The notes under the pieces were generated by a model. It did no database searches, had not been told where the DNA came from, and was given only the letters and a program-made list of their open reading frames with translations. Below are positions 8,425 to 16,871 of a stretch of DNA of 22,418 bases, in pieces (the first letter of the stretch is position 1; each line of letters opens with the position of its first letter). This DNA is from an uncultured Clostridia bacterium. Its GTDB lineage: Bacteria; Bacillota; Clostridia; Oscillospirales; Acutalibacteraceae. Where the stretch lies: contig CAMHLN010000016.1 of assembly GCA_946186155.1 (NCBI GenBank), positions 1-22,418 of the forward strand, in the 5' to 3' direction. The position numbers were made by a program, and so were the translations under genes.

Positions 8425-8501
8425 GCGCCGGTAGCTCAGCAGGATAGAGCAACTGCCTTCTAAGCAGTAGGTCAGGGGTTCGAATCCCTTTCGGCGTGCC
8501 A
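8425..8501 (+). tRNA. tRNA-Arg (anticodon TCT), CCA encoded
   Basis: Acceptor GCGCCGG pairs with TCGGCGT. D-arm TAGCTCAGCAGGATAGAGC. Anticodon loop CTTCTAA in an ACTGC/GCAGT stem. T-arm GGTTCGAATCC. Confidence 0.8.
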
Positions 8502-8503
8502 GT

Positions 8504-8580
8504 GGTGGGCATAGCTCAGTTGGGAGAGCGCCAGATTGTGACTCTGGAGGTCGCCGGTTCAATCCCGGTTGTCTACCCCA
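8504..8580 (+). tRNA. tRNA-His (anticodon GTG) with encoded G-1, CCA encoded
   Basis: G-1 at 8504 pairs with discriminator C. Acceptor GTGGGCA pairs with TGTCTAC (2 G-U pairs). Anticodon loop TTGTGAC. T-arm GGTTCAATCC. Confidence 0.8.
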
Positions 8581-8582
8581 GT

Positions 8583-8657
8583 TGGGTTGTCGCCAAGTGG
8601 TAAGGCAATGGGCTCTGACCCCATCATTCGCTGGTCCGAATCCAGCCAACCCAGCCA
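8583..8657 (+). tRNA. tRNA-Gln (anticodon CTG), CCA encoded
   Basis: Acceptor TGGGTTG pairs with CAACCCA. Anticodon stem ATGGG/CCCAT with loop CTCTGAC. T-arm GGTCCGAATCC. Resembles the E. coli tRNA-Gln scaffold. Confidence 0.8.
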
Positions 8658-8662
8658 TTCAA

Positions 8663-8737
8663 TGGGATGTAGCCAAGCGGTAAGGCAACGGACTTTGACT
8701 CCGTCATTCGTTGGTTCGAATCCAGCCATCCCAGCCA
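8663..8737 (+). tRNA. tRNA-Gln (anticodon TTG), CCA encoded
   Basis: Acceptor TGGGATG pairs with CATCCCA. Anticodon stem ACGGA/TCCGT with loop CTTTGAC. T-arm GGTTCGAATCC. Confidence 0.8.
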
Positions 8738-9004: not shown

Positions 9005-9445
9005 ATGGGATTTTTTGAAGATTGTTATCTTAATATGAAGAGTGGAATTTCTAGGGCGGCAGAAAAAACTAAGAAAGTTTTAAATATTTCTAAAATAAAG
9101 ATCGAAATGGCTGAAAGAAAAAATTGTATCAATGATAAATATAAGCTGATAGGTAAGTACGTCTATGATATGCACAAAGGGGGGGAGAAGTTTGAGATTG
9201 AAGATATTGCTGATTGGCTTGAAGAGATAGATGCTCTTAGTTCGAGTATAGAAGAATGCGAAGAACGTTTGCATCGCGCTCAGGATAAGGTTTGCTGCCA
9301 TTATTGTAAATATAAGAACGAGTCTGGATCGAAATTTTGCAGCAACTGTGGTAAGAAGATATCTTTTGCCAAAAGAGGAAGCAAATCGTCTTGTGAAAAC
9401 TGTGAGAACGAAGAAAACAATGAAGAAAATGTTGAAATTAGCTAA
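9005..9445 (+). CDS. Hypothetical protein with coiled-coil N-terminus and C-terminal Cys-rich zinc-ribbon (CCHYC...CSNC, CENC)
   Basis: GGAG RBS 7 nt upstream. Cys pairs CHYC-x11-CSNC plus SSCENCENE read like a zinc ribbon. No family recognised. Confidence 0.55.
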   Translation: MGFFEDCYLNMKSGISRAAEKTKKVLNISKIKIEMAERKNCINDKYKLIGKYVYDMHKGGEKFEIEDIADWLEEIDALSSSIEECEERLHRAQDKVCCHYCKYKNESGSKFCSNCGKKISFAKRGSKSSCENCENEENNEENVEIS

Positions 9446-9514
9446 TTTTTAGCAAAAATCTTGACTTGATTTTAATTGTATCGTAATTGCAACGTAGTTG
9501 TTTTTTATCGAAGT

Positions 9515-9982
9515 TTATTTTTCTTGCAATAAGCATATCGCAATAGCTTTTACTCCTTTGATTTCTCCTGTGAATCCTAATTTTTCTTCAGTTTTGAATT
9601 TCACATTAATCTGATTGGGGCTTATTTTGCAACAGTCAGATAATTTTTTTTCTATGCTATATCTATAAGGATTAAGAACAGGAGTCTGGGCCACAAATGT
9701 GCAATCTATATTGATAATTTTAAAATCTGAAATGATTTCAATTGTTTTTTCCAAAAGATTCAAACTACTTAAATCTTTGTATTTATCATCTTCTGGAGGG
9801 AAATGTTGTCCTATGTCTCCTTTACATGTTGCTCCTAAGATTGAATCTATAACAGCATGAGTCAAAGCATCTCCATCACTGTGAGAAATGCATCCGTAAT
9901 TACTTTCAATTTCAACTCCGCCAACTATAAATTTTGCTCCTTTTTTTAATTCATGAACATCATAACCTATTCCTATTTTCAT
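9515..9982 (-). CDS. ispF: 2-C-methyl-D-erythritol 2,4-cyclodiphosphate synthase
   Basis: MKIGIGYDVHEL...GCISHSDGDALTHAVIDSILGA...GDIGQHFP and a C-terminal KTEEKLGFTGEIKGV match the IspF signature regions. The gene is monocistronic and not fused to ispD. Confidence 0.9.
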   Translation of the reverse strand: MKIGIGYDVHELKKGAKFIVGGVEIESNYGCISHSDGDALTHAVIDSILGATCKGDIGQHFPPEDDKYKDLSSLNLLEKTIEIISDFKIINIDCTFVAQTPVLNPYRYSIEKKLSDCCKISPNQINVKFKTEEKLGFTGEIKGVKAIAICLLQEK

Positions 9983-10127
9983 GATATCCCTCTATAAAAT
10001 AGCATATTGAATTATTTTAGTTTTGTTTATATCATAATCACGTGTTATTTTCTATGATATTTTTCATATGAAATTTTTTTATAAGATTTAGTATGACAAA
10101 TTTTGACAATTATTGGGAGTAAAGTTT

Positions 10128-10682
10128 ATGATAAAGTTTCTAAATGGAAACTGCGATTTGTTAATTAGGCACGATAAAAATTCGATTTTATTCAATGAAG
10201 ATTTATTCATTTACTCAGTATCGAAAATAGCTGAGGATATAAAAAAGAATTTTGATATGAGTAAAAAGATAGGTCTTGTTGGAATTGCTCGAGGAGCATT
10301 GCCTTTATTAGTTGCCGTTTCGCATGAATTAGGAATACGAAACGTCAATGTGTTTCAGTTAGTTATGAGTAAGTCTGATAACGAGTTCGATTTTGATGAA
10401 GTAGCGAAGATTTATGATGGGTATGTTGATAAAAGTTGCGATTGCTATATAATATTCGAAGATATAGTTAGTGAGGGACGAAGTGTTAATGTGCTGTTGG
10501 AAGAATTTTTGAAAAAGAAATTGGAGGTTTCTGCTGTTTATTCTTTGTTTGTGAAAGAAGATTTTATCGAATCCGGGAAATTGCTAGGAGATACAGATTT
10601 GAGATATGTCTTTCCTTTCAAAACGGATGAGTGGGTGTATTTTTTCTGGGAAAAGAAGTATAAAATTTTGAAAAATTTATGA
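10128..10682 (+). CDS. Type I phosphoribosyltransferase, Gpt (xanthine-guanine PRTase)-like, with atypical PRPP loop
   Basis: The ORF-track start at 10113 is a TTG. The ATG at 10128 has GGGAG 8 nt upstream. LVGIARGALPLLVAVSHELGIRNVNV parallels Gpt [26 protein letters not shown]. The PRPP motif is YIIFEDIVSEGRS, against canonical VIDDLVDTGGT. The C-terminus DEWVYFFWE parallels Gpt DTWIEQPWD. Confidence 0.7.
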   Translation: MIKFLNGNCDLLIRHDKNSILFNEDLFIYSVSKIAEDIKKNFDMSKKIGLVGIARGALPLLVAVSHELGIRNVNVFQLVMSKSDNEFDFDEVAKIYDGYVDKSCDCYIIFEDIVSEGRSVNVLLEEFLKKKLEVSAVYSLFVKEDFIESGKLLGDTDLRYVFPFKTDEWVYFFWEKKYKILKNL

Positions 10683-10693
10683 AAGGATAAGTA

Positions 10694-11020
10694 ATGTACA
10701 GAGTAATAAAAAGACTGGAAATTTCAGCGTCACATAAATTGAATCTTCCGTATGAAAGTAAGTGTAAAAATCTTCATGGGCACAATTGGATATTGACTGT
10801 TTATTTACAATCTGAAACTTTAGAAAATGGCATGGTTTATGACTTTACTGAAATTAAGAAGTTGGTTAAAAATAGATTAGACCATAAAAATATGAACGAT
10901 TACATAGAACAACCAACGGCTGAGAATATTGCAAAGTACGTTTGTGACATTTTAGGAGAAAAGTGTTATATGGTAGAAGTGCAAGAAAGCGATGGGAACG
11001 TCGCAGTATATGAAAAGTAA
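10694..11020 (+). CDS. queD: 6-carboxy-5,6,7,8-tetrahydropterin synthase
   Basis: At 108 aa it has the PTPS/QueD size. It carries the catalytic CxxxxHGH motif (CKNLHGHNW) and lies 11 nt downstream of the PRTase gene. Confidence 0.85.
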   Translation: MYRVIKRLEISASHKLNLPYESKCKNLHGHNWILTVYLQSETLENGMVYDFTEIKKLVKNRLDHKNMNDYIEQPTAENIAKYVCDILGEKCYMVEVQESDGNVAVYEK

Positions 11021-11720
11021 AAACTTAAGATTGTGTGAAATTTTTAAAAGTATATCAGGAGAAGGATTAAGGCAGGGTGTACCTGCTGTTTTTGTTAGAT
11101 TCAGTGGTTGCAATATGAATTGTGACTATTGTGATACGAAATATCATAAATATGATTTCAAAATGGTTAGTATAGATGATATTTTAGAAAATGAAATTGT
11201 TAAAAAATCGAAATATTTTGTCATAACTGGAGGAGAACCGTTTGTCCAACATGAGGACATATTTGAGTTGATACATCAACTTTCTCTTTTAGGAAAAGTT
11301 GAAATAGAAACTAATGGTTCTAACTTATATTCAAATGTACTTAATCTATATAAAAAAGTAAATCCGTTCAAAGTTTTGTTAACTGTCGATTATAAGATGG
11401 ACCAAGCAAGTGAGTTATATGTAAAAAATTTTGATATGGGATTGGACCTTATTAAAAATAAAATGCAAGAATTAGGTGTAGATGATAGGTGGTTTCCGTT
11501 GTGTTGCATTAAAATTGTAGTAAAAAACAAAAAAGAAATAGATGAATCTTACGAATTGTCTAAAAAATATTCTGGCTTTAAGATTATACTTTCCCCGTGT
11601 TATGGAATAATTTCTCCTACTGAGATGGCAGAGTATATAGTAGATAAAGAGTACGATGATTTAAGAGTTCAAGTTCAATTACACAAATATCTTTGGGAGG
11701 TTAATGCTCGTGGAAAATAA
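10992..11720 (+). CDS. queE: 7-carboxy-7-deazaguanine synthase (radical SAM)
   Basis: The cluster FSGCNMNCDYCDT is a QueE-type CxxxCxxC radical-SAM site, and LCEIFKSISGEG aligns to B. subtilis QueE VLEIFGPTIQGEG. The true start may be ATG 11010. The gene overlaps the queD stop, consistent with translational coupling. Confidence 0.85.
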   Translation: MGTSQYMKSKNLRLCEIFKSISGEGLRQGVPAVFVRFSGCNMNCDYCDTKYHKYDFKMVSIDDILENEIVKKSKYFVITGGEPFVQHEDIFELIHQLSLLGKVEIETNGSNLYSNVLNLYKKVNPFKVLLTVDYKMDQASELYVKNFDMGLDLIKNKMQELGVDDRWFPLCCIKIVVKNKKEIDESYELSKKYSGFKIILSPCYGIISPTEMAEYIVDKEYDDLRVQVQLHKYLWEVNARGK

Positions 11721-12288
11721 TGAATTAGATTTTAAAAATGCGGAAAACTCTATAAAAAAATTGTTCGAATGTTTAAAAATAAATTTGCCAGATGAAACTC
11801 CAAAACGGTACGTTAAAATGATGTACGATATGACTAAATACCAAAATGTTTCAAATCAAGAGATAGCCGATTTTGTAAACAAAACTTTCGAAATCGATAC
11901 TAAAACTGATTCAAGTAATATGGTGTTGGTTAAAGATATAGAAGTATTTAGTTTGTGTGAACATCACATTGCTCTTATGTATGACATGAAGATATCAGTA
12001 GGGTATATTCCCAACAAATTTGTTTTGGGTCTTTCAAAAATAGTTCGTTTAGCTGATATGGTATGTAAAAGATTACAACTTCAGGAAAAAATAGCAGAAG
12101 ATATAATAGAAATAATGAAAATTTTGACTCGAAGTTCTGATATAGCAGTTCATATAAGAGCAAAACATAGTTGCGTGACTGCACGAGGAATCAGAAATAC
12201 TTCATCTGAAACTGTTACGGTGAATTTCAATGGAAAGTTTTTGAATGACAGCTGTTTGAAATCATCATTTCTTAACAGTTTATCTTAA
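11704..12288 (+). CDS. folE: GTP cyclohydrolase I (FolE type)
   Basis: Carries the CEHH motif (SLCEHHIALMY), YIPNKFVLGLSKIVR and HSCVTARGIRN, all matching FolE. It overlaps the queE 3' end by 17 nt. GGGAGG RBS. Confidence 0.88.
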   Translation: MLVENNELDFKNAENSIKKLFECLKINLPDETPKRYVKMMYDMTKYQNVSNQEIADFVNKTFEIDTKTDSSNMVLVKDIEVFSLCEHHIALMYDMKISVGYIPNKFVLGLSKIVRLADMVCKRLQLQEKIAEDIIEIMKILTRSSDIAVHIRAKHSCVTARGIRNTSSETVTVNFNGKFLNDSCLKSSFLNSLS

Positions 12289-12362
12289 GGCTATTGGCTC
12301 ATAACTGTATAAATTGATTGTTTAACTCCTAAAACTTCAAATGATAATTGCGTTGTTTTAAA

Positions 12363-12382
12363 ATCCAAATTTGTTTTTGGAT
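12363..12382. terminator. Perfect 7-bp hairpin ATCCAAA-TTTGTT-TTTGGAT after the folE operon (weak or non-canonical terminator)
   Basis: Read directly from the sequence. It is flanked by TTTTAAA upstream and AAAAA downstream, so it has no 3' U-tract on the plus strand. Confidence 0.3.
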
Positions 12383-12389
12383 AAAAACA

Positions 12390-12418
12390 TTGTAATTATT
12401 GTCATAATGTGATATAAT
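12390..12418 (+). promoter_or_regulatory. Promoter of secreted-protein paralog 1: TTGTAA, 17 bp spacer, TGaTATAAT (extended -10)
   Basis: TTGTAA at 12390-12395 and TATAAT at 12413-12418, with the upstream TG at 12410-12411. Confidence 0.5.
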
Positions 12419-12424
12419 CCCGAC

Positions 12425-12467
12425 GCGCTTTAAGATATTGCGCTTTAAGATATTGCGCTTTAAGATT
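12425..12467. repeat. 15-bp tandem repeat GCGCTTTAAGATATT x 2.9 in 5' UTR
   Basis: Units lie at 12425-12439, 12440-12454 and a partial one at 12455-12467. They sit between the -10 and the RBS of paralog 1. Confidence 0.9.
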
Positions 12468-12486
12468 GTAAATTTTGGAGGTATTT

Positions 12487-13350
12487 ATGAACGAAACTAA
12501 AAAAAGATTGTTATCATGTTTATTACTTGCTATGGGGGGATTAAATTTAGGCACTGGAGTGTCTAATGCTCGATCAAAAGATGTTACCAATATGTCTAAT
12601 GTATCTTCCGAAGAAACTAAGAGAAATTCTAAAATTTCAAGTATTTTTAATTTAAGAAATGGTATAGATATTTTGGGATTATTGACTATAATTTATGGAG
12701 GTAAAAAGCTCCGGAATAATTCGCGAGACATAATTAAGAAAAATTCGGATATTATTAAGTATTACAAAGGACAAACTGATGATTTTAATTTATTGCAAGA
12801 TTTCCAACAGTTGTTTCGTTTTTGTTTGTGCCAGTCAAACGCTGGTTTTATTCATTTGAAAGATTTTACCGAAGAAGACTGCAAAAAGTACGACATCGTT
12901 TGTTTTAATAACGCGCAATACGACAAATCTGATGAATATTTGAGTTATTATTTTATTGTTGAATCGTCAGTAGATAAGAATGAAAAATTTAATTTTGCTT
13001 TTTGTACAAATAACAATTTTATGTCAGTTATAGCTCCTGCTAGTGCTGGTAATATTTCTGAGGATTATTCTGAAGAATATAATAATTTGAAACCATTTAA
13101 AGTAGCTGGGTATAGTATTTCGAAGGAAGTAAAACGAGAAAAATGTGCTAAAATTGTCGGGTTTAAATCATTGTTTCTAGGTATTAAACATCCAAATTTG
13201 TATTTTGGGGGCAAAGAACTGTTGGAAGAACACAAAAAAAAATTTGAAGATTATTATATAGTTTTTGAGATATATAGAGAGGTAGGTGAGGAGTACTACT
13301 CCTTGGATGGAATATACTGTAAAGTTTCATTGGTTAGACCAAAAAATTAA
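12487..13350 (+). CDS. Secreted protein, variable family member 1 (signal peptide, conserved RNG-IDILGLLTIIYGG N-module, Cys-containing divergent C-terminus)
   Basis: ATG 12487 follows GGAGGT. MNETKKRLLSCLLLAMGGLNLGTGVSNA|RS is a Sec signal peptide. The ORF-track 12475 start is a TTG extension. Confidence 0.8.
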   Translation: MNETKKRLLSCLLLAMGGLNLGTGVSNARSKDVTNMSNVSSEETKRNSKISSIFNLRNGIDILGLLTIIYGGKKLRNNSRDIIKKNSDIIKYYKGQTDDFNLLQDFQQLFRFCLCQSNAGFIHLKDFTEEDCKKYDIVCFNNAQYDKSDEYLSYYFIVESSVDKNEKFNFAFCTNNNFMSVIAPASAGNISEDYSEEYNNLKPFKVAGYSISKEVKREKCAKIVGFKSLFLGIKHPNLYFGGKELLEEHKKKFEDYYIVFEIYREVGEEYYSLDGIYCKVSLVRPKN

Positions 13351-13461
13351 ACAAATTAGTACCATTACTGGAATCAATGTAAGACAACGAATAATTTTAA
13401 CGAATTAGTTTGATTTTTAATTTGTGCTTAGTTGTAGTATTAAAGACTTTTGGAGGTATTT

Positions 13462-13518
13462 ATGAACAAAGCTAAAAAAAGATTGTTATCATGTTTATTA
13501 CTTGCTATGGGGGGTTAA
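13462..13518 (+). other. Orphaned start and signal-peptide fragment of paralog 2 (MNKAKKRLLSCLLLAMGG*), terminated by a 1-nt indel
   Basis: Its RBS and start context are identical to paralog 1. After the G6 run, paralog 1 reads GGGGGGATTAAAT and paralog 2 reads GGGGGGTTAAAT. The reading frame therefore hits TAA at 13516-13518. Confidence 0.75.
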
Positions 13519-14342
13519 ATTTAGGCACTGGAGTGTCTAATGCTTCCCCTAGGAGTAGTACTGAAAAATCCGAGAAAAATTCGAAAGTTTCAAGTATTTT
13601 TAATTTAAGAAATGGTATAGATATTTTGGGATTATTGACTATAATTTATGGAGGTAAAAAGCTTCGGGATAAAAATAAATCGTTGGAAGAATTGAATGAG
13701 GACAGATCGTATATCAAGGAGTTTTACGAAAATAAAGTTGATGATATTAACCTCTTTCAAAATTTTCAACATTTGTTTTATCTTTGTTTTAAAGGTGTAA
13801 TGTATTTTAGTGAATATAATTGGCAAGATTTAACAACAGAAGACTGCAAAAATTACGGAACCGTTTGTTTTGATAACAGTAAGTTAGAAGACGACAATTG
13901 TTATCGGAGTTGTTATTTTATTTCAAATAAACGTTTGGACAAGGAAAGTGATAGATTTTCATACATTGAAAAGCCAGAGTTATCGTCAGTTCTAGCTTCG
14001 GCTCCTAGTCAGTACGCCGGTGAATGTGGTAATTTAGAACCATTTACAATGGCTGGATATTCTGTTTGGTACAGTTTACAGAAAAACTTACGTGTTAAAA
14101 TCATCAAGTTTGAAGAACTTTTAAAAAAAGTTGAATATGATAACTTAAATAATTTGTGGAGTAAAGAAAAGTTTGATGAATATAAAGAGAAATTTAAAGA
14201 TTACTATATACTTTGTGAGGTGTATACAAATAGATATAAAAACCCCGAAATTAAAGATGAAGTTTTCTACAAATTTTCATTGGTTAAACCAATAGCACCA
14301 GCACCAATGCCAATACCAGAACCAGTACCGAAAAAAAATTAA
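13491..14342 (+). CDS. Secreted-protein family member 2, frameshifted at N-terminus (possible pseudogene or phase-variable)
   Basis: From the internal ATG at 13491 the protein reads MFITCYGGLNLGTGVSNA...SSIFNLRNGIDILGLLTIIYGGKKLR, 100% identical to paralog 1 across this module and then divergent. It has lost the charged n-region and start of the signal peptide. The C-terminus reads PIAPAPMPIPEPVPKKN. Confidence 0.6.
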   Translation: MFITCYGGLNLGTGVSNASPRSSTEKSEKNSKVSSIFNLRNGIDILGLLTIIYGGKKLRDKNKSLEELNEDRSYIKEFYENKVDDINLFQNFQHLFYLCFKGVMYFSEYNWQDLTTEDCKNYGTVCFDNSKLEDDNCYRSCYFISNKRLDKESDRFSYIEKPELSSVLASAPSQYAGECGNLEPFTMAGYSVWYSLQKNLRVKIIKFEELLKKVEYDNLNNLWSKEKFDEYKEKFKDYYILCEVYTNRYKNPEIKDEVFYKFSLVKPIAPAPMPIPEPVPKKN

Positions 14343-14359
14343 GAACAATCTTTAACAAA

Positions 14360-15376
14360 TCAGTTTGATATATGAACCAAATGAGCTACTCCAGGAATGT
14401 TTTTTCCTTGCTGAAAAGAGGTTGGAGACATTAAGGCTCCCGTGGCCATGAACAAAACGCTGTTTAGTTTGTGTTTTGCCATTTTTTGTAAAACATATGA
14501 GCACAAAATTGAAGCAGAGCATCCGCATCCCGAGCCTCCAGCATGGACATCTTGTTCTTCCTTATGAAAAATCATCAGCCCGCAGTCGTTGTAGTTTTTT
14601 GTGATATCTATTCCTTCTTTCGCTAGAAGTTCCTGAAGAAGTAGTGCTCCTGTTTCTCCTAAATCTCCTGAAAGAATTAAATCGTAATTTTCAGGAGATG
14701 TTTTAGTATCTTCAAAAAATTTTTTAAGAGTTACAAATGCTGCAGGAGCCATAGCTGCTCCCATGTTTGACGAATCAGTTACTCCCAAGTCCTCTATTGT
14801 TCCAGCGGTGAAATGTTTAATGAACGGAGTATTTTGTTTTTCTGTTTTTTGCCCCAAAACTATAGCTCCTGAGCCTGTGACCGTCCACTGAGCATTGGGA
14901 GTTCTTTGGCCTCCATAATCCAAAGGAAATCTATATTGTCTTTCTGCTGCGCAAAAATGAGATGAAGTAACAGATATGCAATTTTTTGCCGCATTAGATT
15001 CCACGAAAATCGATGCTACTATCAAAGTTTGTGCCATTGTAGAACAAGCTCCGAATTGGCCTAAAAATGGAATTTTCAGTTTTTTTAATCCCATCATCGA
15101 GGATATACATTGGTCTAGCAAGTCTCCTGCAAAAACGAAATCTATTTCATTTGAATTCACCCTAGATTTTTCAATTGCTATCCGAACTGCTTCTTTTTGC
15201 AAAATGGCTTCAGATTCTTCCCAAGTTTTTTGCCCAAATCTATTGTCTTTGAATGTTTTATCGAATAAGTTTCCTAGAGGACCTTGAGACTCTTTTAATC
15301 CACAAACTGATGCGAATCCCTTAATTGTTGGGCAATTTTCTAATTTAATAGTGCTTTTTCCTATTCTTATGGCCAT
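14360..15376 (-). CDS. spoVAD: Stage V sporulation protein AD
   Basis: At 338 aa it is the same length as B. subtilis SpoVAD. It shows long collinear identity: EGPLGxLFDK, GDLLxQ, IPFLxxFGACST, TSSHxxxAERQxRxPxxYGGQ, TVTGSGAxVL, GxTDSxxMGxAMAPAA, YDLILxGDL, NDCGLMI, AGGSGCxCSA and ATGALxSPT. Confidence 0.92.
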   Translation of the reverse strand: MAIRIGKSTIKLENCPTIKGFASVCGLKESQGPLGNLFDKTFKDNRFGQKTWEESEAILQKEAVRIAIEKSRVNSNEIDFVFAGDLLDQCISSMMGLKKLKIPFLGQFGACSTMAQTLIVASIFVESNAAKNCISVTSSHFCAAERQYRFPLDYGGQRTPNAQWTVTGSGAIVLGQKTEKQNTPFIKHFTAGTIEDLGVTDSSNMGAAMAPAAFVTLKKFFEDTKTSPENYDLILSGDLGETGALLLQELLAKEGIDITKNYNDCGLMIFHKEEQDVHAGGSGCGCSASILCSYVLQKMAKHKLNSVLFMATGALMSPTSFQQGKNIPGVAHLVHISN

Positions 15377-15517
15377 AAAATCTCCTGTATTTTTTAGGAT
15401 ATCAACTTTATTTTGTCCCGATTTTTTGAAATAATCACTCGGTTGACATCTAGAATGAGTGTTTATATTAAGATAACGAGATTTTTCTTTTTTATTTTTT
15501 GAAATAATGTCTGAACC

Positions 15518-15546
15518 TTCTAATTTTTTTAAAAGAATGGTATAAT
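15518..15546 (+). promoter_or_regulatory. Putative promoter of transporter gene (TGgTATAAT extended -10)
   Basis: TATAAT at 15541-15546 with a TG at 15538-15539, and a weak -35 TTCTAA 17 bp upstream. Confidence 0.4.
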
Positions 15547-15593
15547 GGCTTCGCTTTTATAATCGGACTAATGTTTAGAGGTGTTTAGAAAGG

Positions 15594-16871
15594 ATGTTTA
15601 TGCCAAATTTTTTGAAAAATGAAACTAACAGAATTTTTTTTGCTCTTTTTCTAGGAGTAATTTTTGGAGCAATAATGAAACTTTTGCCTCCATCTTCGTA
15701 TCTGGACGACATATTAGTTAACGGAATACTTAGACTTGTTGGAAACGGATTTATTGAACTTATCAAAATGACTGTAGTTCCTCTTATTTTCACATCAATT
15801 ATATGCGGAGTTTCCTCATTTGGGGATTCAAAAAAATTAGGAAAAATCGGAGCAAAAACCCTGATATTATTTTTTATTACTACCCTCATTGGAGTAATAA
15901 TTTCTTTATTTTTAGCTATGCTTTTCAAACCAGGATACGTTGAAAATCCTTTAGTTTCTGCGGAAATTGGTTCTAGTTCTAGTCAAAATTCGAAAAATTT
16001 TTTCGATGTAATTATCGAAATGATTCCTAATAATCCTTTTAAATCAATGTCTGAAGGAAATTTACTACAGGTATTGATATTTGCTTCATTTTTTGGAGTT
16101 GCCATAGGAAAGATGGGAGAAAAATCAAAAAAAATAGTAGATATGTTCAATCTAATCAACGAATGTATTATGAAAATTGTATCTATGATTATCAAAATTA
16201 CTCCATTTGGAGTTTTCGCATTGGTTTCTATCGCAATGTACTCAACGGGATTAGAATCTTTGATTGGAGTTTTAAAATTGAGCATGGTAGTAATTTCTGC
16301 ACTTTTGGTTCAAGCATTTTTAGTTTACGGTTTGTTCTACAAAATAGGAACTGGGTTTTCTTTTTTTAAATTTTTAAAAAATTATTCAAAAATAGCAAGC
16401 ATAGCGTTCTCAACGTCATCAAGTAATGCGTGTTTACCATATGGAATGAAAATGATGGAAAAAATTGGAGTAGATAAATCTATATATCAGTTTATTTTAA
16501 CTTTAGGATCCACTATAAACATGGCAGGAACAGCTATAATGCAATCTGCAAGCGTTATTTTTATTTCTCAACTCCACGGTATAGAATTATCTCTTAGTTC
16601 TATTACCAGAATAGTATTTACATCTGTTTTGGCTTCTGCTGGAGCTGCGGGAGTCCCGGGAGTTGGAATTATAATGCTTACTATGGTAGTGTCGTCAGTT
16701 GGATTACCTACTGAGGGGATAGCAATGATTATGGGATTCGATAGAATTTTAGATATGCTTAGAACTCCTGTGAATGTCATGGGAGACTGCGTTTGTTCTA
16801 TCATAGTAGCAAAGAGTGAAAATTCCGTAGATATGACCAAATTCAACTCGGAAAGTAGAAATACCAAATAA
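15594..16871 (+). CDS. Dicarboxylate/amino acid:cation symporter (DAACS/GltP-SstT family)
   Basis: Polytopic membrane protein with IKMTVVPLIF and AFSTSSSNACLP hairpin-loop motifs, which are diagnostic of sodium:dicarboxylate symporter family proteins. The start may be ATG 15600, which has AGGA 5 nt upstream. Confidence 0.85.
   Translation: MFMPNFLKNETNRIFFALFLGVIFGAIMKLLPPSSYLDDILVNGILRLVGNGFIELIKMTVVPLIFTSIICGVSSFGDSKKLGKIGAKTLILFFITTLIGVIISLFLAMLFKPGYVENPLVSAEIGSSSSQNSKNFFDVIIEMIPNNPFKSMSEGNLLQVLIFASFFGVAIGKMGEKSKKIVDMFNLINECIMKIVSMIIKITPFGVFALVSIAMYSTGLESLIGVLKLSMVVISALLVQAFLVYGLFYKIGTGFSFFKFLKNYSKIASIAFSTSSSNACLPYGMKMMEKIGVDKSIYQFILTLGSTINMAGTAIMQSASVIFISQLHGIELSLSSITRIVFTSVLASAGAAGVPGVGIIMLTMVVSSVGLPTEGIAMIMGFDRILDMLRTPVNVMGDCVCSIIVAKSENSVDMTKFNSESRNTK

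Follow-up and report, generated by a model that had tools for sequence, protein, structure and literature searches.

Why would a gut bacterium place a phosphoribosyltransferase (PRT) at the head of an operon that makes a 7-deazaguanine base? This question is raised by four genes—encoding the PRT, QueD, QueE, and FolE—on contig CAMHLN010000016.1 of an uncultured Clostridia bacterium. The 22,418 nucleotides analysed, hereafter called "the window", are one whole 22.4-kb contig of a metagenome-assembled genome (MAG), and the absences of que genes from the window reported below cover that contig. Judging from the sequence, we propose that the operon probably makes a 7-deazaguanine ribonucleotide; the narrower claim, that 7-carboxy-7-deazaguanine (CDG) is the base actually used, falls slightly short of an even chance. 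The four genes are packed on the plus strand at 10128-12288, behind a leader:

9983..10127, plus strand: leader/promoter region between the divergent ispF and the operon, with the palindromes CACGTG and TTCATATGAA and a Shine-Dalgarno sequence, GGGAG, at 10115-10119
10128..10682, plus strand: PRT, a type I phosphoribosyltransferase of 184 aa from a rare family resembling Gpt (weak PF00156, HGPRT, and XPRT matches; family alignment)
10694..11020, plus strand: QueD, 6-carboxytetrahydropterin synthase, 108 aa (Pfam PTPS, NCBIfam QueD, CxxxHGH motif)
10992..11720, plus strand: QueE, CDG synthase, a radical S-adenosylmethionine (SAM) enzyme, 242 aa (NCBIfam QueE models, PDB QueEs)
11704..12288, plus strand: FolE, a GTP cyclohydrolase I of 194 aa, whose gene closes the operon (Pfam, NCBIfam, and PDB matches)

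An earlier reading made from the letters alone—hereafter the sequence-only reading—had described four packed, partly overlapping genes in this interval, and the open reading frames (ORFs) lie exactly where it put them. The successive spacings are +11 nt (PRT–QueD), −29 nt (QueD–QueE), and −17 nt (QueE–FolE), which indicates that the four genes are co-expressed. The PRT starts at ATG 10128, 8 nt downstream of GGGAG, and its Met1 lines up with the start of all homologues; the alternative start, TTG 10113, is a mere mechanical extension of the ORF. In the leader, a promoter-like site, TTGAAT-17-TATCAT, lies at 10007-10035. The leader is 95% identical in three of the loci fetched for comparison (L001, L041, and L036), with both palindromes inside an invariant 34-nt core, and it may contain a protein operator.

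How would the base be made? QueD matches the Pfam PTPS family at 92 bits and the NCBIfam QueD model at 81.2 bits (cut-off 89.25), carries the CxxxHGH motif as CKNLHGH, and has PDB matches that include the archaeal PH0634 and E. coli QueD (4ntm). For QueE, each of the five best NCBIfam matches is to a QueE model (139.6 bits, cut-off 260), the radical-SAM CxxxCxxC motif is present, and the PDB matches with E below 1e-5 are the three solved QueEs (6nhl, 5tgs, and 4njg). FolE scores 164 bits in Pfam and 159.6 bits in NCBIfam (cut-off 162), and it matches the GTP cyclohydrolase I structures in the PDB at E 1e-28, with the CEHH zinc site aligned. The three proteins are thus divergent but recognisable in sequence, below the NCBI equivalog cut-offs and far above those of Pfam. 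Through homology to well-characterised enzymes, the route from GTP to CDG can be assigned in the following manner. First, FolE would convert GTP to dihydroneopterin triphosphate (H2NTP). Second, QueD would convert H2NTP to 6-carboxytetrahydropterin (CPH4), from which QueE would produce the free base CDG. Beyond the steps assigned by homology, the PRT would join phosphoribosyl pyrophosphate (PRPP) and CDG, placing ribose 5-phosphate on N9 to form the CDG ribonucleoside 5′-monophosphate, a step suggested by the precedent of TubE in tubercidin biosynthesis. The product would be the nucleotide of 7-cyano-7-deazaguanine (preQ0) instead, if QueC is encoded elsewhere in the genome.

What kind of PRT, then, leads the operon? 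It scores 23.7 bits against Pfam PF00156 (cut-off 26.3), 27.2 bits against the hypoxanthine-guanine PRT (HGPRT) model (Hpt, TIGR01203; cut-off 150), and 26.1 bits against the xanthine PRT (XPRT) model (Gpt, NCBIfam NF006613; cut-off 138), and so belongs to neither of the latter families. The sequence-only reading had assigned it to the Gpt family; since the Gpt and Hpt models fail by more than 100 bits, that assignment has to be withdrawn, and the protein is Gpt-like in fold only. It has what defines the type I PRT superfamily: the fold, the Arg-Gly of the pyrophosphate (PPi) loop, the acidic PRPP-binding pair, and the 5′-phosphate loop. The AlphaFold2 model has a pLDDT (predicted local distance difference test) of 91, and its nearest folds are the S. 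solfataricus hypoxanthine-guanine-xanthine PRT (HGXPRT, 4Z1O), xanthine-guanine PRTs, and uracil PRT, at sequence identities of 14-23%; the best match of the family profile to the PDB sequences has E=1.7e-6. Compared with E. coli Gpt (PDB 1A95/1A97) and other 6-oxopurine PRTs, the identity is 20-23%, Asp92 is replaced by Ser, and the 5′-phosphate loop changes from DTGGT to S(E/H/K)GRS. Compared with Gpt and the other 6-oxopurine PRTs, the N-terminal hood is about 30 aa longer and the gene context consists of 7-deazaguanine genes, not purine genes. A profile alignment by hhalign, with the E. coli Gpt sequence checked against PDB 1A95, pairs the active-site residues as follows:

Gpt Arg37-Gly38 with PRT Arg55-Gly56: PPi loop
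Gpt Asp88-Asp89 with PRT Glu111-Asp112: acidic PRPP pair
Gpt Asp92 with PRT Ser115: N7 contact
Gpt Trp134 with PRT Trp169: base stacking
Gpt Asp140 with PRT Glu175: base recognition

The residues that are invariant in the PRT family are the counterparts of Gpt Arg37, Asp88-Asp89, Trp134, and Asp140. The loop itself reads EDIVSEGRS, and the catalytic Asp of the (E/D)D-x-x-D-T-G loop that marks Gpt and Hpt enzymes is absent from it. At the position of Gpt Asp92, the equivalent of human HGPRT Asp137 and, by established enzymology, the residue that contacts the purine N7, the window and the clusters linked to QueC have Ser, and the clusters of the Gmk/FemAB type have Tyr. On the strength of the alignment and the model, the protein is a credible purine-type PRT, in which the PRPP machinery and the recognition of a guanine-like Watson-Crick edge appear to be kept and the N7-dependent residue is gone. 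The loss of the N7-contacting Asp fits a substrate with C7 in place of N7, and is suggestive of such a substrate. The residue after Ser115 is an invariant His in the QueC-linked clusters, Tyr-Lys in the Gmk/FemAB type, and Glu, Lys, or Arg in the window's genus; a rule that would read the preference for CDG or preQ0 from this residue fails, as the three residues vary within a single genus.

The guanine-type residues Trp169 and Glu175 also favour a different explanation, which we consider quite improbable: the operon would serve ordinary queuosine synthesis, with queC, queF, tgt, and queA elsewhere in the genome, and a divergent guanine/xanthine PRT would supply GMP, and hence GTP, to FolE in a purine auxotroph. 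The genome beyond the contig could hold those genes, and the tRNA-His(GTG) gene in the window encodes a potential substrate for queuosine at position 34. On the other side stand the wide failure of the Gpt and Hpt models and the missing N7 Asp. The canonical queuosine operon of Bacillota is queC-queD-queE-queF (B. subtilis ykvJKLM), usually behind a riboswitch for 7-aminomethyl-7-deazaguanine (preQ1). The window shares with it the adjacent QueD and QueE that make CDG, and differs from it in having FolE, in being led by the PRT, in lacking QueC, QueF, and the riboswitch, and in a QueE that belongs to a different small clade, outside the usual clostridial queCDEF type. Rfam finds no riboswitch, preQ1 or otherwise, and no other RNA in 9900-12600 even at E<=1, and window-wide it returns seven tRNAs only. 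The sequence-only reading was right that the window has no queC or queF: tblastn finds no QueC there, and QueC, QueF, and tRNA-guanine transglycosylase (TGT) are missing from both the window and the Pfam lists of the syntenic contigs.

Is the PRT a housekeeping enzyme of purine salvage? Searched with the family profile, 1.84 billion cluster representatives gave 390 proteins at E<=1e-3, 63 at 1e-10, and 23 at 1e-30. In a GTDB scan of one genome per species, the PRT occurs in 23 species (the window's own species is not among them), all of them uncultured gut Bacillota MAGs labelled Clostridia, Bacilli, Erysipelotrichaceae, 'Tenericutes', or Candidatus Onthoplasma. A family this rare, and restricted to a few gut lineages, is not a housekeeping purine-salvage enzyme, which speaks further against ordinary queuosine synthesis with a salvage gene. 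IMG/VR, the GenBank phages, and the PLSDB plasmids contain no relative of the PRT, and a phage or plasmid origin was rejected on that ground. A known defence system was likewise rejected: PADLOC gives nothing for the PRT, QueD, and FolE, and for QueE it gives matches to generic viperin radical-SAM models alone.

What do the neighbouring genes indicate in the other lineages? We called and clustered the ORFs in about 95 fetched loci (denoted by L numbers) and annotated the representatives with Pfam, NCBIfam, PHROGs, and PADLOC; neighbours were counted in the 75 PRT loci of at least 4 kb, in which a few contigs were fetched twice, so that the counts are in part redundant. One or more 7-deazaguanine genes (Vut_1, QueC, QueD, QueE, or FolE) occur in 62 of these 75 loci. 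The most frequent neighbours are a Tmk-like kinase (55 loci), the pyrophosphatase Ham1 (51), Vut_1 of the YhhQ family (48), FemAB (32), a guanylate-kinase-like protein (31), and QueC (25). Vut_1 passes the NCBIfam equivalog for the 'queuosine precursor transporter' (177 bits against 51), and the QueC of the type A clusters passes its own equivalog (164.7 bits against 150.3). The Gmk-, Tmk-, and Ham1-like proteins fall well below the housekeeping equivalog cut-offs and are therefore regarded as dedicated paralogues. Translational coupling is frequent: QueC is coupled with the PRT in L011, and Vut_1 adjoins the PRT in the type B clusters. The clusters fall into four types:

Type A: methyltransferase, CYTH protein, Vut_1, Tmk-like kinase, FAD protein, QueC, PRT, Tmk-like kinase, Ham1
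Type B: two GreA-like proteins, WYL regulator, Vut_1, PRT, Gmk-like kinase, FemAB, Tmk–methyltransferase fusion, Ham1, unknown protein
Type C, the type of the window, in the window's genus only: PRT-QueD-QueE-FolE and nothing else
Type D (L007, L040, and L098): MoaA-like radical SAM enzyme, PRT, Tmk-like kinase, PseC/DegT-type aminotransferase, (two Nudix proteins), QueC, QueD, QueE, FolE, HD hydrolase

Types A, B, and D have one sequence of steps in common: a 7-deazaguanine base, imported or made, passes to the PRT, then to nucleotide kinases, and then to a nucleoside triphosphate (NTP) pyrophosphatase. This shared gene set points to the metabolism of 7-deazaguanine at the nucleotide level. 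In type B, the base would be imported, as the block contains no que biosynthesis genes. The PRT is joined in one cluster with FolE, QueD, and QueE in the window and likewise in L007, L098, and L099. The window's cluster looks like a stripped-down form of the larger clusters of other gut Bacillota, which add the precursor transporter, QueC, nucleoside monophosphate kinase-like enzymes, NTP pyrophosphatases, a MoaA-like radical SAM enzyme, and a sugar-type aminotransferase. For ordinary queuosine synthesis with a salvage PRT, the pairing of the PRT with a guanylate-kinase-like gene in type B is a point in favour; the partners of the PRT, which are QueC and the transporter for queuosine precursors and not purine genes, and the dedicated nature of the Gmk, Tmk, and Ham1 paralogues, are points against.

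The partner genes lead in the same direction. The window and the type D cluster L098—which reads radical SAM-PRT-Tmk-like-aminotransferase-QueC-QueD-QueE-FolE-HD—are 73% identical in QueD, 65% in QueE, 69% in FolE, and 50% in the PRT, with matching gene order and overlaps; the window QueD is 69-73% identical to its counterparts in the PRT clusters L007 and L098. In a search with QueE, about eleven 90% clusters form a small clade with identities of at least 55%; another clade follows at 41-47%, and then the bulk of the clostridial QueEs at 33-39%. Of three look-ups in the first clade and its neighbour, two were informative: L098/L099 contains the full type D cluster, and L096 contains QueD-QueE-FolE-HD-Nudix at a contig end. 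As far as the sequences tell, QueD, QueE, and FolE of the window form a small clade that co-travels with the PRT. The sequence-only reading had proposed that the PRT acts on the operon's own base, in the manner of TubE or ToyH of the toyocamycin cluster; the Gpt-family membership attached to this proposal has fallen, and its core is strengthened by the PRT's place in a rare family that nearly always lies beside 7-deazaguanine genes, the lost N7 Asp, and the co-travelling partners.

The same resemblance raises the prospect that the four genes are only the opening half of a longer pathway of the L098/L040 type, leading to a 7-deazapurine nucleotide or an aminonucleoside, with the remaining functions (QueC, a Tmk-like kinase, an aminotransferase, a radical-SAM enzyme, and Nudix, HD, or Ham1 hydrolases) encoded elsewhere in the genome, and that the substrate is preQ0 or another derivative. 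This is compatible with the synthesis of a 7-deazaguanine ribonucleotide, from which it differs in substrate and end product only, and we regard it as unlikely. It is favoured by the 65-73% identity of the window's QueD, QueE, and FolE to those of L098, by the closest outgroup clusters, which hold all the extra genes in a single block, and by the QueC of type A, which stands immediately before the PRT and is coupled to it. However, the extra genes are absent from the 22-kb window and from ±10 kb in L001-L003, and their dispersal would be unusual, given that they are tightly clustered in all the other lineages. In addition, the His after Ser115, invariant in the QueC-linked clusters, is lost and variable in this genus, which suggests a changed substrate.

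The next clade of QueE, at 44% identity, proved on one look-up to be phage-borne (L100 282-4781 and L101 253-4728). The genes there are ordered ParB_N, a 243-aa DpdA-like transglycosylase (phrog_887, E=1.6e-46), QueD, QueE, FolE, terminase, and portal, without QueC. The DpdA-like gene is directly upstream of QueD, and the slot of the PRT is thus held in the phage by a base-transferring enzyme. This module is a candidate for CDG-type DNA modification in a gut phage. Phage modules for 7-deazaguanine DNA modification combine DpdA with FolE/QueD/QueE, some of them without QueC (PMC6884629, PMC10516641). The phage module and the window share the QueD-QueE-FolE order with its overlaps, the lack of QueC, and a base-transferring enzyme immediately upstream; the phage enzyme is a DpdA-like DNA transglycosylase, whereas that of the window is a PRPP-dependent PRT at a chromosomal, non-viral locus. 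The window's operon might accordingly supply CDG for DNA modification by a DpdA-type transglycosylase encoded elsewhere, with the PRT accessory or unrelated. The phage module of the next QueE clade, and the existence of phages whose pathway ends at CDG (PMC10516641), give some room to this explanation, which we consider very improbable indeed. Neither the window nor the roughly 95 PRT loci contain a DpdA/TGT-like gene (by tblastn with the phage DpdA-like protein and by the Pfam lists), which was seen in L100 and L101 only; moreover, the locus is a conserved chromosomal site between housekeeping genes and not a prophage, and the PRT is absent from the viral collections searched.

Is the operon maintained in its genus? 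The position between ispF and spoVAD is kept in the metagenome contigs L001-L003, from a 96%-identical relative, and the four-gene block recurs on the short contigs L036 and L041, the window copy being identical to that of L036. Between the window and its relatives, the ratio of nonsynonymous to synonymous substitutions (dN/dS) is 0.17-0.23 for the PRT, 0.07 for QueD, 0.07-0.08 for QueE, and 0.12 for FolE, in the range of the neighbouring housekeeping genes. The syntenic copies and the low dN/dS indicate a stable chromosomal operon, with all four genes kept by purifying selection, and neither a recent insertion nor a decaying remnant. Pseudogenisation is ruled out by the intact ORFs in all the relatives and the dN/dS of 0.07-0.23, and there is no sign of recent horizontal transfer, with a GC content of about 30% like that of the neighbouring genes and with syntenic flanks.

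How does the operon compare with the known systems? TubE of Streptomyces tubercidicus, 194 aa, is a CDG-specific PRPP transferase in vitro, which makes the CDG ribonucleotide and rejects 7-deazaguanine, and it is encoded with FolE/QueD/QueE homologues in the core tubA/B/C/E (PMC6112128). Like the window, the tubercidin core consists of GTP cyclohydrolase I, CPH4 synthase, CDG synthase, and a purine-type PRT of about 190 aa, with no QueC. The authors of that study aligned TubE to S. solfataricus HGXPRT, given as '4Z10' in the supplement and taken here as 4Z1O (PMC6112128), which the window PRT also resembles; the link between the two enzymes is the indirect one of this shared fold match. The window, unlike the tub cluster, has no TubD (GMP reductase), TubF (UbiD decarboxylase), or TubG (Nudix), and tubercidin therefore cannot be its product. 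Moreover, the host is a low-GC gut Bacillota rather than an actinomycete, and the PRT family of the window is defined by the Ser or Tyr at the N7-Asp position and by its WVYFFWE C-terminus. ToyH, from the toyocamycin/sangivamycin cluster of S. rimosus, is still of unverified activity (PMC12648386). It is the PRT proposed for preQ0 in a FolE/QueD/QueE/QueC cluster, and by its description it resembles the L007/L098-type relatives with QueC; the toy cluster goes on to encode GMP reductase and adenylosuccinate synthetase/lyase, enzymes that no PRT cluster seen contains.

What would become of the nucleotide? With probes from the related clusters, tblastn finds no QueC, DpdA-like protein, Tmk-like kinase, Ham1, or Vut_1 in the window. 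GMP reductase, UbiD decarboxylase, adenylosuccinate synthetase/lyase, and Nudix/HAD phosphatases are missing from the window and the syntenic contigs, and the window lacks any kinase, reductase, decarboxylase, or hydrolase like those of the tub and toy clusters or of types A, B, and D. As these later enzymes are absent, the simplest end products would be the nucleotide itself or its nucleoside, cadeguomycin. The nucleotide could be dephosphorylated to a cadeguomycin-like nucleoside, or it could be phosphorylated and tailored by genes outside the window.

Several points weigh against the synthesis of a 7-deazaguanine ribonucleotide by this operon. The kinases and the NTP pyrophosphatase, present in the PRT cluster of every other lineage, are missing in that of the window, which may be left over from a larger cluster or represent one half of a pathway split within the genome. 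From the loss of the N7 Asp no more than a suggestion can be drawn, since the distant 'FPWE'-type PRTs, of unassigned function, are also without this Asp. No simple carboxylate-binding determinant can be named, with the residue after Ser115 variable in the genus. A neighbour-joining tree without support values puts the window PRT clade next to types A and D, at the end of a long branch. Finally, QueC, QueF, Tgt, or DpdA may lie elsewhere in the genome, so that the base made by the operon could go, in addition or exclusively, into the modification of tRNA or DNA.

Beyond the window, a broader and more tentative proposal can be made, to which we give clearly less than even credence. The PRT would represent an undescribed family of 7-deazaguanine-specific enzymes, the entry to a pathway limited to uncultured gut Bacillota that would make free 7-deazaguanine nucleoside mono-, di-, and triphosphates from imported or self-made CDG, preQ0, or preQ1. 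In the expanded clusters, these nucleotides would be tailored by the MoaA-like radical SAM enzyme, the sugar-type aminotransferase, FemAB, and the methyltransferase, and trimmed by Ham1, Nudix, or HD proteins, to yield antimetabolites of an aminonucleoside or puromycin-like kind, or nucleotide analogues with antiviral action; the window would hold the minimal, CDG-based (cadeguomycin-type) form. The pathways of puromycin and 3′-amino-3′-deoxyguanosine (Pur10/Pur4/Pur7/Pur3 and AdgB-E) proceed by 3′-oxidation of an NTP, transamination, and dephosphorylation (PMC9239236). In domain content, the expanded PRT clusters are alike, with kinases to the NTP, a radical SAM or FAD oxidiser, a DegT/PseC aminotransferase, Nudix/Ham1, and an HD phosphohydrolase, and type B adds a FemAB aminoacyl-transferase and a methyltransferase to this set. 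The window has none of the puromycin-type genes, and the resemblance concerns the expanded clusters of the other lineages only. Should it hold, gut Bacillota might make 7-deazaguanine aminonucleosides, a suggestion that we draw from analogy.

The literature searched contains no description of the PRT family or of these Bacillota clusters. A 2026 preprint on QueE-centred mining lists candidate clusters mostly from Streptomyces, cites PF00156 for the toy and tub families only, and does not describe the PRT family (10.64898/2026.04.15.718813); a 2026 preprint on the QueC family makes no mention of PRTs, kinases, Ham1, or YhhQ (PMC13082051); and a 2025 review gives no gene cluster for cadeguomycin (PMC12648386). 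The PRPP-dependent assembly of deazapurine nucleotides is thus known, and the enzyme family, the gut Bacillota as hosts, and the minimal four-gene form appear to be new. A dedicated PRT family in gut Bacillota, if true, would constitute a fourth setting for 7-deazaguanines. The three established roles are tRNA modification (queuosine and archaeosine), DNA modification (Dpd and phages), and the nucleoside antibiotics of Streptomyces. The link of the PRT to the transporter, QueC/QueD/QueE, and its own kinases and pyrophosphatases implies free 7-deazaguanine nucleotides in commensal anaerobes. Queuosine precursors are micronutrients for the host, and the PRT clusters would bear on how such precursors are consumed or diverted in the gut. 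They could also lead to new nucleoside antimetabolites. On the broader proposal, chemistry of this kind would for the first time be placed in bacteria other than actinomycetes, and in the animal gut, an outcome that we hold to be possible rather than probable.

Several of the related clusters have features of their own. The type B block is kept in many uncultured gut Bacilli/'Tenericutes' MAGs (L023-L033 and L062-L083); in L024, at about 9200-15700, it comprises two GreA-like proteins, an HTH-WYL regulator, Vut_1, the PRT, a Gmk-like kinase, a FemAB-like protein, the Tmk–methyltransferase fusion, Ham1, and two unknown proteins. The expanded clusters with radical SAM, PRT, kinase, aminotransferase, two Nudix proteins or HD_3, and QueC-QueD-QueE-FolE are found in L098 (3585-9944), L099, L040 (520-9346), and L037 (2722-7515). 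The Tmk-like kinase of L098 has a weak PADLOC match to the viperin-associated kinase VakA, which is a lead only, and a TLC-family ATP/ADP (nucleotide) translocase is encoded on the minus strand at 843-2396, just upstream of the PRT cluster of this locus. Type A loci such as L013 (2793-3878) encode a protein of 361 aa whose N-terminal CYTH domain only just passes the NCBIfam model 'class IV adenylate cyclase' (60.2 bits against 57.95); in a cluster with the PRT, QueC, and kinases, it possibly performs a cyclic or triphosphate-processing step on a deaza-nucleotide. In L007 (1-7407), the type D cluster is directly downstream of genes for a PAPS-reductase-domain protein, a class V aminotransferase/cysteine-desulfurase-like protein, a 1068-aa protein, and a UvrD helicase, a context that could be a dnd-like or defence island. 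The most divergent PRTs (36-42% identity), in L006 (3341-11405), L020, and L060, belong to a different block, with Vut_1, a B12-binding radical SAM enzyme, a glycosyltransferase, a PIG-L deacetylase, a reverse transcriptase, and a 5′-3′ exonuclease; FtsK and DNA methylases lie nearby, and this context therefore looks like a mobile element.

The window itself is a chromosomal stretch with a GC content of about 30-39%. It encodes EF-G, EF-Tu, a GNAT protein, a Band-7 protein, SecA, seven tRNAs, a zinc-ribbon protein, and, on the minus strand, IspF. The operon is followed by a pair of secreted paralogues, by SpoVAD on the minus strand, and by a sodium:dicarboxylate symporter, RadA, and others; SpoVAD is found at full model score, in agreement with the spore-former that the sequence-only reading had seen in this host. 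The two paralogues, at 12475-13350 and 13491-14342, have an N-terminal motif, 'GGLNLGTGVSNA', in common and match nothing in Pfam or NCBIfam; they arose by a recent tandem duplication, as judged from the single copy in the 96%-identical relative L001. Between a promoter-like site at 12390-12418 and the first of these ORFs, a perfect 15-nt tandem repeat, GCGCTTTAAGATATT, is present in 2.8 copies at 12425-12466, and may be an operator or a phase-variable element. After secA, at 8425-8737, the tRNA genes form the array Arg(TCT)-His(GTG)-Gln(CTG)-Gln(TTG), in which the two tRNA-Gln genes constitute an 80-nt tandem repeat.

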